Assembly (NCBI GenBank): GCA_037446635.1
Contig: JBBIIG010000004.1
Span: 12,186 to 76,185, forward strand
DNA: 64,000 bases
DNA from: a bacterium
GTDB lineage: Bacteria > Zhuqueibacterota > Zhuqueibacteria > Oceanimicrobiales > Oceanimicrobiaceae
Direction: 5' to 3'
The notes under the pieces were generated by a model that ran no database searches, had not been told where the DNA came from, and was given only the letters and a program-made list of their open reading frames with translations. Made by a program: the position numbers and the translations under genes. Shown here piece by piece: positions 13,431 through 25,201 of this stretch (position 1 is the stretch's first letter; every line of letters starts with the position of its first letter).

Positions 13431-13511
13431 CCTACGGTGTTAATTTTCCTTCAAATCTGAGAGAACATCCCCTTCAAAATTGTCTATGTATTGCCAAGGG
13501 GAATCTCTCTG

Positions 13512-14282
13512 ATGTCCAAACCAAAACTGCTTATCTATTCTGAGCAACTGGCCAATTGTAGCTGCTTTCACACTGTCTTTAACACCAAATTTGAAGCAGA
13601 GGTGACATACCAGGAAACGCATTTCTTAAAAAAGATTCAGGAAGAAAACGTTGATACGGCGGTGGTCTGTTTCTGCTCCGCCCAAGAAAAAGATGTGGAG
13701 CGATTGCTGCGGCTGGACGCCCTCACCGGCCCGGTGCCGGTGCTCACTTGTTCCCGAACCCTAAATGCCGATTTTGTTCAGATGGGAGCCAAGCAAGGGG
13801 TGGATCGCTTTCTACAGTGTACCATGGAAGCTGAAAAAATTCATGACCTCATTTTCGAAGCCATTCGCCGCGGCGGTTTGAAGGAATATCTGAAATCGTG
13901 CACCCCCGGTAGCCTCGAGGCTTCTCCTTACGTGCGGAAAATGGTAGACGAAATCATTCATGCTTTTCCCCATCGGCTGAAAGCGGAAGAATTGGCCGAA
14001 CGGCTGGGCATAACCCGCCGCTGACTGCATAAAATTTGCAGACAAGCCTTCGGTAAACCTTTCTCCCTGGTCATGCGCCGTATCTGGGTTCATCAGGCTT
14101 TGCGAATGATGCAGCATACCAACCTCGATAACACGGAAATTGCTCTGCAGCTCAATTACAGTGAGGAGAGCAACCTGGCTCGTGATTTCCGCAGCGAACT
14201 GGGTTATAGCCCCACCGAAGCACGCCGAAGGCTTATCCAACACACCCCAGAAGAGTTACTCATTCCCAAGAATAGTCCTTAA
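13512..14282 (+). pseudogene. AraC-family regulator with a receiver-like N-terminus, interrupted by one in-frame TGA (14022-14024)
   Basis: ORFs 13491-14024 and 14073-14282 share a frame; read-through gives LAERLGITRR*LHKICRQAFG...EIALQLNYSEESNLARDFRSELGYSP (double HTH). Confidence 0.8.
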
Positions 14283-18183: not shown

Positions 18184-19617
18184 TTAATACTTCGGCACAC
18201 TCGGATCCACCTCATCCGACCAGGCCAGAATCCCGCCTTTCAAATTCTTGACCTTCTCAAAACCGGCTTCCCGCAAAAACTTCACGGCTTTGGCGCTGCG
18301 GCCGCCCATCTTGCAATGCACGACAATTTCCTGTGAGCGATCCAATTCGTGAATCCGCGTGGGCAATTCATTGAGCGGAATCAGCTTCGAACCAGGAATG
18401 CGGCAAATTTCATATTCATGCGGCTGGCGGACATCGAGGATGAAAACGCCGCGATTGTTGGACAAGCGCTCATGCAACTGTCGCACCGTGATCTCGTTTT
18501 CCTCCGGCAGCACCACGCGATCCGCCGGCGTGCCGATGCCGCAGAATTGCTCGTAGTCAATCAAGGCATGAATGGTTGGATTTTCACCGCAGATCGGGCA
18601 CTTGGGATCTTTGCGCAATTTCAATTCGCGATACTTCATGGCTAACGCGTCGTATAAAAGCAGCCGGCCAATCAGCGGCTCGCCTTTGCCGATGATCAAC
18701 TTCACCGCTTCCGTGGCTTGCATCAGCCCGACCGTGCCAGGGAGAATGCCCAGCACCCCGCCTTCGGCGCAGCTCGGCACCAATCCCGGCGGCGGAGGTT
18801 CGGGATAGAGACAGCGATAGCACGGGCCCTCTTTGGCGTAAAACACCGAGACCTGCCCTTCGAAACGAAAGATGCTGCCGTACACGTTGGGCTTGCCCAG
18901 CAGCACACAGGCGTCGTTCACCAGATAGCGGGTGGGGAAATTATCGGTGCCGTCGATGATGATATCGTAGTTCTCGAAAATTTGCAGCGCGTTTTCGGAA
19001 GTCAATCGCGTCTCGTAGGTATCCACCTCGACGTAGGGATTGATGCCCTGAATACGTTCCTTCGCCGCCTGCAATTTCGGGCGGCCGACGTCATTCGTTG
19101 AATAAATCACCTGCCGCTGCAAATTAGTAAAATCCACCACATCAAAATCGACGATGCCAATTCGGCCCACGCCCGCGGCGGCTAAATACAGCGCCACCGG
19201 CGAACCCAGCCCGCCCATGCCCACCAGCAGCACCTTGGCCTCTTTGAGTTTCCGCTGTCCTTCGAGCGCCACCTCCGGCATAATGAGATGCCGGCTGTAG
19301 CGTTCGATTTCTGCTTTCGAAAATTCACCGTTGCTGTCGCTGCCGCCGGCCACCGATGGCACGATGCTGATGACGTCGCCGGCTTTGATGTTGGTTTCTG
19401 TGCCGCGAAGATAGCGCACGTCGTCATCGTTGACATAAAGGTTGACGAAATTGCGCAGGCGACCGTCCTCGCTAAAGAGATGTTTGCGCAAGTCGGGGAA
19501 TTTCTCAGTGAGGTTGTCCAGCAGTTCGCCAACATTCTTTCCCTCTATTTGAACGCTGTCCTGATTTTTTGCATACTGGCGCAGCGCCGTCGGGATCAAT
19601 ATTTTTGTAGTCATCAT
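18184..19617 (-). CDS. moeB: Fusion of MoaD/ThiS-like sulfur carrier, MoeB-like adenylyltransferase and rhodanese (CysO-MoeZ-like)
   Basis: Ubiquitin-like N-terminus ending VPSVAGG; RYSRH, GMGGLG, NLQRQ, CYRC, PSCAEGG, CPIC; rhodanese DVR...HCKMGGRS. Confidence 0.92.
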   Translation of the reverse strand: MMTTKILIPTALRQYAKNQDSVQIEGKNVGELLDNLTEKFPDLRKHLFSEDGRLRNFVNLYVNDDDVRYLRGTETNIKAGDVISIVPSVAGGSDSNGEFSKAEIERYSRHLIMPEVALEGQRKLKEAKVLLVGMGGLGSPVALYLAAAGVGRIGIVDFDVVDFTNLQRQVIYSTNDVGRPKLQAAKERIQGINPYVEVDTYETRLTSENALQIFENYDIIIDGTDNFPTRYLVNDACVLLGKPNVYGSIFRFEGQVSVFYAKEGPCYRCLYPEPPPPGLVPSCAEGGVLGILPGTVGLMQATEAVKLIIGKGEPLIGRLLLYDALAMKYRELKLRKDPKCPICGENPTIHALIDYEQFCGIGTPADRVVLPEENEITVRQLHERLSNNRGVFILDVRQPHEYEICRIPGSKLIPLNELPTRIHELDRSQEIVVHCKMGGRSAKAVKFLREAGFEKVKNLKGGILAWSDEVDPSVPKY

Positions 19618-19631
19618 TTTCTCTCCTCAAC

Positions 19632-20063
19632 TTACTCGTTCACTACAATGATTTTTTCTTGTTTGAATTTTGAGCGATCGTCTTCGAGCGTCCAGGAGGT
19701 GACATCGCTCGCTTTGCTATTTTTTATTGAAACGATGATATAGGAATACCACGGCCAACCATGTTCAACATCATAGGCGGAGGGCCGCGCTTCGGCATTT
19801 GGGTGCGAATGATAAAAACCAATGATGTCGAGATTCTTTTGCTTAGCGTACTTTTGGCATTCGAGATAAGCTTGCGGCGTAATTAGAAAGCGATGATACT
19901 TCTCGGCGCTTTCGCGAGCATTGAGCGCTGGCAGTGTTGCCACCACTACTTTGTCGCCGTTCACATTTCTGCCCAATAAAAATCCGCAGCACTCGTCCGG
20001 ATACGATTCCTCGCCGTATGCTTTGATTAATTCCAAATGCTGTCGATCAATCTTAAGCGCCAT
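19632..20063 (-). CDS. mec: JAMM/M67 metallopeptidase (Mec-like)
   Basis: YPDECCG and HSHPNAEARPSAYD (E...HxH-x7-S-x2-D); located between cysM and the sulfur-carrier gene. Confidence 0.88.
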   Translation of the reverse strand: MALKIDRQHLELIKAYGEESYPDECCGFLLGRNVNGDKVVVATLPALNARESAEKYHRFLITPQAYLECQKYAKQKNLDIIGFYHSHPNAEARPSAYDVEHGWPWYSYIIVSIKNSKASDVTSWTLEDDRSKFKQEKIIVVNE

Positions 20064-21030
20064 AATTATTTTCACTCCAAAATTTCTGATCGAAATATTT
20101 GTGCGCGCTGTCCGGAAAAATAGTGACAATAACTCCGCAGCCGATCTCCTTCGCAACCTGCAGTGCCACGGCCAAAGCCGCTCCCGAGGAAATTCCTACG
20201 AGCAGACCTTCTTCCTTTGCCAAAAGTTTCACCATGCGCTGCGCCTCTTCGGTGCTCACGGTGCGATTGTCATCCGCTAAATCCGGCTGATAAAAACCCG
20301 GCACGATGGCGGTCTCCATGTGCTTCAAACCTTCAAGACCGTGGAATGGCGAATCGGGTTGCACCGAGATCAATTTAATTTCTTCGTTATATTCTCGCAA
20401 AAAAAGCCCCGAGCCCATAAACGTGCCGCTGGTGCCAAGCCCCGCAACAAAATGGGTAATGCGGCCTTCGGTTTGCCGGATAATTTCCGGGCCCGTACTA
20501 TCATAATGCGCCAGCCAGTTGGCGCGATTGTTATACTGATCGGCATAAAAATAGCGCTCCGGCTCTGCCGCAAAAATTCGGCGCGCTTCGCGAATGGCGC
20601 CGTCGGAGCCTTGCTGGGGATCGGTCAAAATCAATTCCGCGCCATACGCTCGCAAAATTTGCTGAAAGATGTTGCCGGAATTCTTTGGAATCGCCAACTT
20701 GACTTTGTATCCCAAATTCGCGCCGTACATGGCGTAGGCGATGCCGGTATTTCCAGAGGTGGCGTCGAGGATAATTTTATCCGGTGTGAGTTGCCCCGAT
20801 TTTTCGCCTTCTAAGATAATGTTCAAAGCCGCGCGGTCTTTCACGGAGCCGCCGGGATTGAACCACTCGGCTTTGGCGTAAATTTCCACTGGCGCCACAC
20901 GCGCGGAAATTTTGGCAAGATAAATCAGCGGCGTGTTGCCAACGCGGCTGAGGATAGATGGTTTGCGATCGCCGCCTTCAGAGAGCGTCTCCGCAAACGG
21001 CTCGAATATTGTCGCTGCTTCTGTTTGCAT
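20053..21030 (-). CDS. cysM: PLP-dependent cysteine synthase (CysM-like)
   Basis: GNTPL, NPGGSVKDR, ATSGNTG, GLGTSGT. Confidence 0.92.
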   Translation of the reverse strand: MQTEAATIFEPFAETLSEGGDRKPSILSRVGNTPLIYLAKISARVAPVEIYAKAEWFNPGGSVKDRAALNIILEGEKSGQLTPDKIILDATSGNTGIAYAMYGANLGYKVKLAIPKNSGNIFQQILRAYGAELILTDPQQGSDGAIREARRIFAAEPERYFYADQYNNRANWLAHYDSTGPEIIRQTEGRITHFVAGLGTSGTFMGSGLFLREYNEEIKLISVQPDSPFHGLEGLKHMETAIVPGFYQPDLADDNRTVSTEEAQRMVKLLAKEEGLLVGISSGAALAVALQVAKEIGCGVIVTIFPDSAHKYFDQKFWSENNYGA

Positions 21031-21051
21031 TTTAAGCCTTTCTATTAAAAC

Positions 21052-21080
21052 AAAAAACCCACATCGTGTGAATGTGGGTT
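21052..21080 (-). terminator. Attenuator terminator hairpin upstream of cysM
   Basis: Minus strand AACCCACAT-tcacacg-ATGTGGGTT-TTTT. Confidence 0.85.
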
Positions 21081-21121
21081 ATGATTTTGGTATGCTAACT
21101 TGATTTAAGAATATCAAAACT

Positions 21122-21223
21122 TCAACATAACCCACCGCTCCATTTCATACAACAGATGCACGCGCTGCACACCATCCAGAATTGATTGCAGGGGCCCATG
21201 AAGTTTTGCATTTGAATTTTCAT
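21122..21223 (-). CDS. Cys/Met-rich leader peptide (33 aa)
   Basis: MKIQMQNFMGPCNQFWMVCSACICCMKWSGGLC*: 6 Cys, 5 Met; its 3' end overlaps the antiterminator strand. Confidence 0.8.
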   Translation of the reverse strand: MKIQMQNFMGPCNQFWMVCSACICCMKWSGGLC

Positions 21224-21247
21224 CGCGTTGTTCAATTTTGACGAACA

Positions 21248-21276
21248 AATGTACGCCATCGTTTATTTCAAGTCAA
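21248..21276 (-). promoter_or_regulatory. Sigma70-type promoter of the cys leader/operon
   Basis: TTGACT-N17-TACATT on the minus strand. Confidence 0.75.
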
Positions 21277-24609: not shown

Positions 24610-24885
24610 TTAGTTGACGACCATTTCATCGACATCTTCAGCAGGAACAAATTCAATTTTGGGCATGACAGACTCAATTTTGAAGACGACATGCTTTTTT
24701 CCTTCTCGTTTCAATCGCTCCAAGATTTGTAAATTTTCTTTGTAAAGTTCCGGATCATTTGTGGGTAAGAGAACTAGCTGAGCATCTCGAGGAATTTTAT
24801 CCAAAATTTCCGGCCTATCAATGGCATATTTCATGAAGTCGCTCAAAAGATCACAGTTTTTTTCAATAATCTTTTTTTCAGTCAT
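24610..24885 (-). CDS. DUF5647-like small protein (putative antitoxin)
   Basis: EKNCDLLSDFMKY..PEILDKIP..AQLVLLPTNDPEL; overlaps the upstream gene; low GC. Confidence 0.7.
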   Translation of the reverse strand: MTEKKIIEKNCDLLSDFMKYAIDRPEILDKIPRDAQLVLLPTNDPELYKENLQILERLKREGKKHVVFKIESVMPKIEFVPAEDVDEMVVN

Positions 24886-25201
24886 TTTTAATCTCCGACA
24901 AATAATTTCTGAGATAATTTTCCCATGATAGTTTCAAATCCGAAAGGGCATAATTAAATGCTTCATTGAAAGTAATAAAATACAAAGCTTGTTTACTTTG
25001 AGAACCATCGGGATGCAGTATATCTCGATGAGCAAAACTGTGCGCTGTATCATACCTGACGATTGGAATCCAAGTTTCATTAATTTCCGACTCATATTGA
25101 ACGACAAAACTCAAGATTTGGCCGCTCTCTTTGAATGCTCTCACGCGAATGCGATGCCGCCCATCCGGAGTAAGATCGAACAAGAACGATAATTCATTCA
25201 C
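24878..25201 (-). CDS. Putative toxin (DUF7718/TumE-like)
   Basis: FVVQYE...WIPIVRYDTAHSFAHRD motif; low GC. Confidence 0.7.
   Translation of the reverse strand: MNELSFLFDLTPDGRHRIRVRAFKESGQILSFVVQYESEINETWIPIVRYDTAHSFAHRDILHPDGSQSKQALYFITFNEAFNYALSDLKLSWENYLRNYLSEIKND

Follow-up and report, generated by a model that had tools for sequence, protein, structure and literature searches.

The short Cys-rich leader that precedes a cysM-mec-cysO/moeZ operon is very probably a classical ribosome-mediated transcription attenuator, which would sense charged Cys-tRNA and gate the operon. The leader lies on the minus strand of the window, that is, the whole 64,000-nt stretch of bacterial DNA analysed here. 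This reading is drawn from sequence features: in 15/15 close orthologues of cysM, a U-tailed terminator lies downstream of an ORF of 26-40 codons with 4-9 Cys, and ahead of hisG and trpE the same RNA frame is fitted with His and Trp/Tyr codons. The leader would represent a compact, fully specified terminator version of cysteine attenuation that can be tested in the laboratory.

Elements of the leader and the downstream operon

The elements of the leader and the genes that follow it are listed below in the direction of transcription, with positions counted within the window.

21248..21276, minus strand: predicted sigma70-type promoter-like site, TTGACT-N17-TACATT (9/12 matches)
21122..21223, minus strand: leader ORF, 33 codons, with a Cys-rich ORF at the equivalent place in 15/15 close orthologues
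21188..21209, minus strand: segment 1, predicted protector strand, whose core 21208-21199 pairs with 21124-21115 (duplex -24.7 kcal/mol, shuffle p=0.007)
21146..21175, minus strand: sensor codons M17-M26, enriched in Cys and Met
21169-21149, minus strand: Cys cluster C19, C22, C24 and C25 within the sensor codons
21115..21135, minus strand: segment 2, made up of the antiterminator strand 21135-21126 in the last codons, and of the stop codon and following bases, which pair with segment 1
21071..21083, minus strand: segment 3, comprising the partner of segment 2 (21083-21074) and the terminator 5' arm (21080-21071)
21047..21080, minus strand: intrinsic terminator, hairpin 21080-21056 plus a U tail ~20 nt before the cysM ATG (21030)
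20053..21030, minus strand: cysM-like PLP cysteine synthase, 325 aa (best NCBIfam model cysM, 334 bits, cut-off 394)
19632..20063, minus strand: mec-like JAB/JAMM protease (PF14464)
18184..19617, minus strand: ThiS-family sulfur carrier fused in frame to a MoeZ-like ThiF-rhodanese enzyme (Gly-Gly at residues 91-92)

The leader ORF (21223-21122) is translated as MKIQMQNFMGPCNQFWMVCSACICCMKWSGGLC, followed by the stop codon, and contains 6 Cys and 5 Met, including the initiator. C25 is the last clustered Cys; its codon ends at 21149, 13 nt 5' of the antiterminator strand. This strand, GTGGGTTATG (21135-21126), is the exact reverse complement of CATAACCCAC (21083-21074), which gives a 10-bp helix. 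The antiterminator and the terminator are mutually exclusive, since both use segment 3. In addition, the core of segment 1 pairs perfectly with 21124-21115, and this pairing extends over segment 2. An initial annotation of the same DNA had described an unannotated 33-aa ORF with its 6 Cys, 5 Met and Cys cluster, the 13-nt spacing, the perfect complementarity, the U-tailed terminator ~20 nt before the cysM start and the promoter-like site ahead of the ORF. All of these were recovered, whereas the protector helix was absent from that account. No clear Shine-Dalgarno sequence stands ahead of the leader ATG at 21223. An alternative start at 21259, giving 45 aa, was ruled out because the -10 element falls inside that ORF.

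The source genome (G000, 4.64 Mb, 97% complete) contains 1780 leaders of at least 90 nt, among which 262 have a hairpin with a U tail; 324 short ORFs lie ahead of such hairpins. The leader ORF has the densest Cys cluster of this set (rank 1/324) and is the only one with 4 Cys in 8 codons. Five leader peptides were looked up by exact match in a protein collection, which contains none of them, the leader had no match in a plasmid collection, and no tRNA was found in the window. Similarly, no Rfam family was matched in the window at the gathering score, the Trp, His, Thr, Leu and Phe leader families included, and at E<=5 the leader gave only chance-level matches to unrelated families.

Taken alone, the promoter match is at chance level (2 found in the region versus 1.4 expected), but a similar site occurs 16-39 nt before the leader start in 11/15 orthologues. 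In the window, the leader ATG lies 24 nt after the -10 hexamer and ~18 nt after the predicted start site. In the remaining loci (L008, L010, L014 and L031), no promoter-like site was found within 70 nt before the ORF; their leaders are intact and may rely on read-through from the upstream operon.

In terms of domain content, CysM, a JAB protease, a Gly-Gly sulfur carrier and MoeZ are all present in the operon, which probably serves to produce cysteine, with O-phosphoserine and the thiocarboxylated carrier as substrates. The cysM-like enzyme belongs to the cysteine-synthase family and scores below the curated cysM and cysK cut-offs. In a gap-free alignment with the solved mycobacterial CysM 3dwg, its residue K236 corresponds to the ALRN-motif Arg (R220), a residue that binds the phosphate. 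Within G000 (97% complete), no cysE over the cut-off, no sulfite-reductase domain and no match to the serC model were found; a SerA-like gene adjoins a class V aminotransferase. K236, the lack of cysE and sulfite reductase, and the SerA-like gene fit the route from O-phosphoserine and carrier treated in PMC12910592, the available part of which describes CysM as using O-phosphoserine and CysO. The M. tuberculosis CysM-CysO-Mec-MoeZR pathway comprises the same four activities by domain content. In contrast to that pathway, the genes here form one operon, the carrier is fused to MoeZ, Lys takes the place of Arg, and the enzyme falls under the cysM cut-off. Fusion of carrier and MoeZ after the Gly-Gly was found in 11/12 scorable close orthologues and in 1/11 of family f10, and Mec, the JAB protease, probably cuts CysO free of the fusion. 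A cystathionine-synthase-sized paralogue and three Cys/Met PLP enzymes in G000 suggest a second cysteine route, from methionine.

Upstream of the leader, the same strand carries a biotin carboxylase gene, meaB and two mutase genes. A DUF7718-DUF5647 gene pair (24610-25201, minus strand) is inserted between the biotin carboxylase gene and meaB. Elsewhere in the window, the gene of an AraC-type regulator (13491-14282, plus strand) is interrupted by an in-frame TGA at 14022-14024, with the helix-turn-helix continuing in frame; it is either a pseudogene or the product of a sequence error.

Conservation and folding of the leader RNA

The cysM orthologues were collected from 167 genomes of the phylum at E<=1e-85. 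The 27 orthologues obtained comprise 13 in family f1 (source included), 1 in f3, 1 in f14, 11 in f10 and 1 in f21. Families f1, f3 and f14 make up the close set (n=15), whose members are kin genomes and not independent tests; therefore, p-values across them overstate the support. The alignment of cysM upstream regions proposed in the initial annotation showed the Cys-rich ORF in all 15 loci and a covarying terminator stem, with antiterminator covariation not above shuffles. Cys accounts for 20.2% of the 484 leader codons, compared with 0.86% in G000 proteins (23-fold, in one frame); the other two leader frames have 3.5% and 2.3% Cys and numerous stops. The leader Cys codons are TGT (72) and TGC (26), the genes of G000 favour TGC, and the leaders tend to T-ending codons generally. 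The antiterminator core lies 9-18 nt from the last clustered Cys in 14/15 loci (31 nt in L031) and 3-20 nt before the stop codon. In f3, the leader is found ahead of an operon-opening sulfurtransferase-like gene (read by eye). The f21 orthologue (L039) has no leader in the 171 nt upstream and no mec, cysO or moeZ.

The terminator stem covaries: 97% of cells are paired, two-sided changes occur at 6/10 pairs, and 0/500 shuffles reach as high a score. The U tail follows this covarying hairpin in 15/15 orthologues. The antiterminator pairs are preserved in 82.7% of cells, compared with 28-53% in slid controls, but their covariation (alignment A2) is reached by 168/500 shuffles, probably because the motif hardly varies; in this alignment, L031 is misaligned and the register of L014 is shifted. 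The antiterminator duplex has a shuffle p=0.013 in the window and p<=0.06 in 12/15 of the related orthologues (L013 p=0.017). Leaders whose sequence has changed provide better evidence for the antiterminator than alignment covariation. In leaders of other sequence, the antiterminator strand tracks the terminator arm (L014 p=0.043; L024 p=0.013). In leaders of family f5 that precede cysK-like paralogues, p ranges from 0.003 to 0.03 in 4/5, the fifth having 0.71. In other phyla, values of 0.013-0.043 were obtained for L081, L103 and L073, and weaker ones for L044 (0.073) and L077 (0.126). The protector duplex between segments 1 and 2 has p<=0.05 in 9/15 orthologues, with differing sequences, and a leader's own pairs average -18.5 kcal/mol against -13.7 kcal/mol for cross pairs. 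The protector helix likely completes a trp-like 1:2/2:3/3:4 switch. The 137-nt domain as a whole is no more stable than shuffles (z=-1.25).

The folding of the leader with ribosome footprints, also proposed in the initial annotation, bears on whether the geometry allows such a switch. When the RNA is masked to 12 nt past C25, the antiterminator forms with P=0.98 before segment 4 exists; its probability is 0.78 with the ribosome at M26 and 0 from K27, the zero value with the ribosome at the stop codon following from the mask by construction. When only a 30-nt footprint on the last Cys is masked, 2:3 pairing reaches 0.94 in the window and at least 0.7 in 12/15 loci. Three loci (L007, L008 and L009) favour the protector over the antiterminator when the protector helix may enclose the ribosome. 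At equilibrium, the complete transcript folds preferentially into the terminator, even if a ribosome is stalled on it (P=0.94 in the window, at least 0.99 in 13/15); therefore, the switch must be kinetic. The terminator is also favoured at equilibrium when E. coli thrL and hisL are folded in the same way. In naked RNA at equilibrium, the 2:3 antiterminator beats the 1:2 protector in 10/15 loci, including the window (0.95). The masked-fold measure is crude, since for the E. coli controls it gives only 0.14 for thrL and the wrong direction for hisL (0.2 stalled, 0.6 at the stop codon). The folds thus show that the geometry permits the switch, not that the switch operates.

Proposed mechanism, alternatives and known systems

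The elements described above suggest the following course of events. RNA polymerase would first make segments 1 and 2, which would pair as the protector, and a ribosome starting at 21223 would melt this helix. When Cys-tRNA is scarce, the ribosome would wait on C19-C25 and leave segment 2 free to pair with segment 3 before segment 4 exists; no terminator would then form, and the operon would be transcribed. When Cys is plentiful, the ribosome would run onto segment 2 and the stop codon, segment 3 would pair with segment 4, and transcription would end ~20 nt before cysM. If the ORF were left untranslated, the protector would favour termination; this is the least certain step, and it is weakened because the antiterminator wins in naked RNA. 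The initial annotation had proposed that stalling at Cys codons frees the antiterminator and lets cysM-mec-cysO/moeZ be read, in a geometry matching the trp, his and thr attenuators. This proposal gains support from the ORF, terminator and spacing kept in the 15 close orthologues and from the occurrence of the frame with His codons before hisG and with Trp/Tyr codons before trpE; the protector helix and the sharing of the frame between operons are added to it.

Stalling at Met codons, which the initial annotation had put forward as possible, also gains support. In the 10-codon sensor windows, Met accounts for 13/77 non-Cys codons (17%), against 8/334 elsewhere in the leaders and 1.94% genome-wide. 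Co-sensing of Met with Cys is plausible and may occur, with Met-tRNA possibly acting as a second input to the attenuator. Slippage in TG-rich repeats could be an alternative source of the ATG codons.

The same terminator switch could in principle be operated by the nascent Cys-rich peptide itself, which would stall the ribosome by sensing a ligand (metal, thiol or sulfide), as arrest peptides do. CxxC and CC patterns can bind metals, and the leaders of family f10 keep a fixed R-C-x-C-R/T-R/K-R-G motif with just 2-5 Cys. However, the leader peptides of the close set are otherwise dissimilar: their N-terminal identity averages 2.4/12 residues, and the number and spacing of Cys vary freely. In L003, a 1-nt deletion shifts the C-terminal frame over segment 2 and leaves the RNA sequence unchanged. 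Together with the presence of the frame before hisG (with His codons) and trpE (with Trp/Tyr codons), these observations make a peptide-ligand sensor improbable. The same variation bears on the idea that the ORF makes a functional small Cys-rich peptide, either a metal binder or a substrate of the ThiF and JAB enzymes, which is suggested by the location of Cys-rich products of 26-40 aa next to an E1-like enzyme and a JAB protease. It is very unlikely, as neither the peptide sequence nor the Cys pattern is conserved, the position of Cys is fixed relative to the RNA helix and not to the ORF start, and the fused carrier offers these enzymes a natural substrate.

The hairpin could also be a mere terminator of the upstream methylmalonyl-CoA mutase operon, with the ORF being incidental: 78 nt separate the ORF from the end of the mutase C-terminal gene, which is read in the same direction, with no terminator listed between the two. 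This explanation has a very low probability. A mutase gene lies upstream in only 7/15 loci, so the leader goes with the operon and not with the mutase gene; moreover, the U tail is ~20 nt from cysM, and the 23-fold Cys enrichment is confined to one frame. Control might instead be exerted on the translation of cysM, by occlusion of the ribosome-binding site or by reinitiation, as in mycobacteria. The dissected mechanism of the mycobacterial Ms5788A ORF is of this kind (available part of 10.1101/834739), and poly-Cys ORFs that end near the next gene, with no terminator found, exist in other phyla (L049, L053, L086 and L107). For the leader studied here, translational control is highly improbable, since the conserved helices end at 21056, at the terminator and ~20 nt or more before the start codon, the cysM start region is unpaired in the predicted folds with no occlusion of a Shine-Dalgarno sequence, and the covarying hairpin is U-tailed in 15/15 orthologues. 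The attenuator sensing Cys-tRNA is therefore the preferred reading.

This attenuator shares its layout with the classical ones (E. coli thrL, hisL and trpL; M. tuberculosis ilvB1), in which a short ORF with a run of end-product codons and a U-tailed terminator likewise stand before the first gene; the mechanism is described in the accessible portions of PMC13236596 and 10.1101/834739. In E. coli thrL, as was seen directly, the antiterminator strand in the last codons copies the terminator 3' arm, as it does here. The differences are that Cys, and perhaps Met, would be sensed, that a sulfur-carrier cysteine operon would be controlled, and that there is no Rfam match.

Among the closest described systems is the mycobacterial Ms5788A ORF of the 'Cys ribulon' (Canestrari et al., 10.1101/834739), which, according to the part of the paper available, shares the run of Cys codons before cysteine-related genes and for which stalling was proposed as the sensor. 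The same source reports that Ms5788A is leaderless and unmasks a Shine-Dalgarno sequence, and that termination was shown not to be its mode of action. In contrast, the leader described here is not leaderless (its start site is predicted), and its output is an intrinsic terminator. That source further states, as far as it is accessible, that mycobacterial polycysteine ORFs respond to cysteine, leaves the mechanism at the other loci open, and notes that no cysteine uORF attenuation was known earlier. In the portion of PMC13236596 (2026) available, cysteine genes are still cited as translationally attenuated. For Actinobacteria, Seliverstov et al. 2005 (PMC1262725) predicted that cys and cbs genes are preceded by short ORFs containing runs of Cys, as here; the accessible part reports no conserved terminator hairpins and suggests Rho, whereas a terminator, an antiterminator and a protector are present in this leader. 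The available parts of PMC2965389 and PMC4833913 do not mention a cys attenuator. The initial annotation knew of no characterised terminator attenuator for this pathway. This holds for the terminator type, of which no cysteine example was found in the literature searched, whose coverage was partial; it has to be qualified in that cysteine-responsive leader ORFs have been shown in mycobacteria, where the dissected one is translational.

Related leaders in the source genome and beyond

Terminator-type attenuation is textbook knowledge for Trp, His, Thr and the branched-chain amino acids. Less expected are the sharing of one RNA frame with swapped codons, the Met/Cys leaders of receptor genes and the terminator-less form in family f10.

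In G000, four leaders share a GUGGG...CCCAC...GUGGG-U frame: that of cysM combines it with Cys codons, that of hisG with His codons, that of trpE with Trp/Tyr codons and that of a TonB-dependent receptor gene with Met/Cys codons. Of the 8 places that match the terminator core, 4 have GTGGG upstream, and these correspond to the leaders of cysM, trpE, hisG and the receptor gene. Of the 324 short ORFs, the one ranking first for His lies ahead of hisG, and the one ranking first for Trp/Tyr lies ahead of trpE; therefore, the organism appears to use leader-peptide attenuators. These two leaders (L120, Trp/Tyr-rich, before trpE and L121, His-rich, before hisG, on contigs C1 and C45) are unannotated, and both share the frame of the cys leader, complete with protector, antiterminator and terminator.

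A covariance model built from 14 cys leaders was searched over 150 genomes, and 16 further matches were examined. Two are His-rich (hisG), and five are rich in Trp/Tyr/Phe, preceding trpE (2), DAHP synthase (2) and a trpB-like gene (1). The others include one Trp-rich leader (unnamed gene), four Met/Cys-rich leaders (TonB-dependent receptors) and one each before moeZ, cysK-like and thrC-like genes; L163 has no leader ORF. A codon-blind three-part pattern gave 16 matches in 21 family genomes and 0 in the control. Of these matches, 9 are cysM leaders, as follows by construction, 4 belong to trpE and 3 to TonB-receptor genes; in each case the codon run fits the gene. Aromatic-codon leaders with a similar frame stand before the DAHP synthase, trpB-like and unnamed 289-aa genes (L164, L166, L165 and L168). 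The frame also occurs before a stand-alone moeZ in G010 (L162) and 376 nt before a threonine-synthase-like gene in G011 (L160); neither genome has a cysM orthologue at E<=1e-85. The hisG leader of G014 (L179) is the nearest to the cys leaders. It has two Cys codons left among the His codons and looks like a cys leader in which most Cys codons have been swapped for His.

The Met/Cys copy of the frame in G000 (L180, contig C97, 4249-4372, minus strand) precedes a TonB-dependent receptor of 912 aa. Receptor orthologues in three other genomes (L177, L178 and L159) also have Met/Cys-rich leaders, and the receptor genes of G000 C97, G001, G005 and G015 are 69-72% identical over the compared stretches. 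In G015, the Met-rich ORF of the leader stops just before the core. By its leader codons, this receptor is a candidate importer of a sulfur amino-acid source. More generally, leader codons can suggest functions for unnamed genes, the TonB-dependent receptor being one example.

Common descent is the simplest reading of the shared frame, although the cores are short and the resemblance may also be due to convergence. A broader proposal, held with about even confidence, is that a shared chassis (protector, GUGGG antiterminator and CCCAC/GUGGG terminator) was copied between operons while its sensor codons were swapped. The Cys and Met versions would then form a sulfur-amino-acid regulon read by ribosomes, and f10 would have kept the Cys ORF and replaced the terminator by another, possibly Rho-dependent, output. 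If this is true, the Met/Cys leader names the receptor as an importer of a sulfur amino-acid source. A shared frame with swapped codons would also offer a natural series for studying the origin of attenuators and changes in their specificity.

In family f10, a short ORF with Cys-x-Cys and an 11-bp helix with two compensatory pairs are found in 10/10 loci with enough upstream DNA (L015-L018, L032-L036 and L038; L037, with 81 nt upstream, was left out). No U-tailed hairpin below -7 kcal/mol was found downstream in 9/10 of them, and a C-rich sequence follows the helix. Just 5 nt lie between the last Cys and the helix; therefore, the logic differs.

Among paralogues, 1/12 loci has a convincing leader (L024, a cysK-like paralogue). 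Of a further 20 paralogue loci, 5, all from f5, have both a Cys ORF and a terminator in the 250 nt next to the gene. The apparent Cys ORFs of L027 and L029 (cystathionine-synthase-sized paralogues) were discarded, since their Cys run overlaps the terminator or lies downstream of it. L140 has an ORF and a terminator, but its antiterminator is not switch-like (p=0.71).

Of 80 named loci in other phyla, 77 have at least 300 nt upstream. A cluster of 4 or more Cys per 8 codons is present within 600 nt at 10/77 of these loci, compared with 1/77 on the opposite strand. Some of the ORFs are accompanied by terminators; others stop near the next gene, with none found. The latter form is seen in Blastocatellia- and Heliobacteriaceae-labelled loci (L049, L053, L086 and L107), where the poly-Cys ORFs possibly act by translational control. 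In L107, the gene that follows the poly-Cys ORF is peroxiredoxin-like as read by eye, with cysM further downstream.
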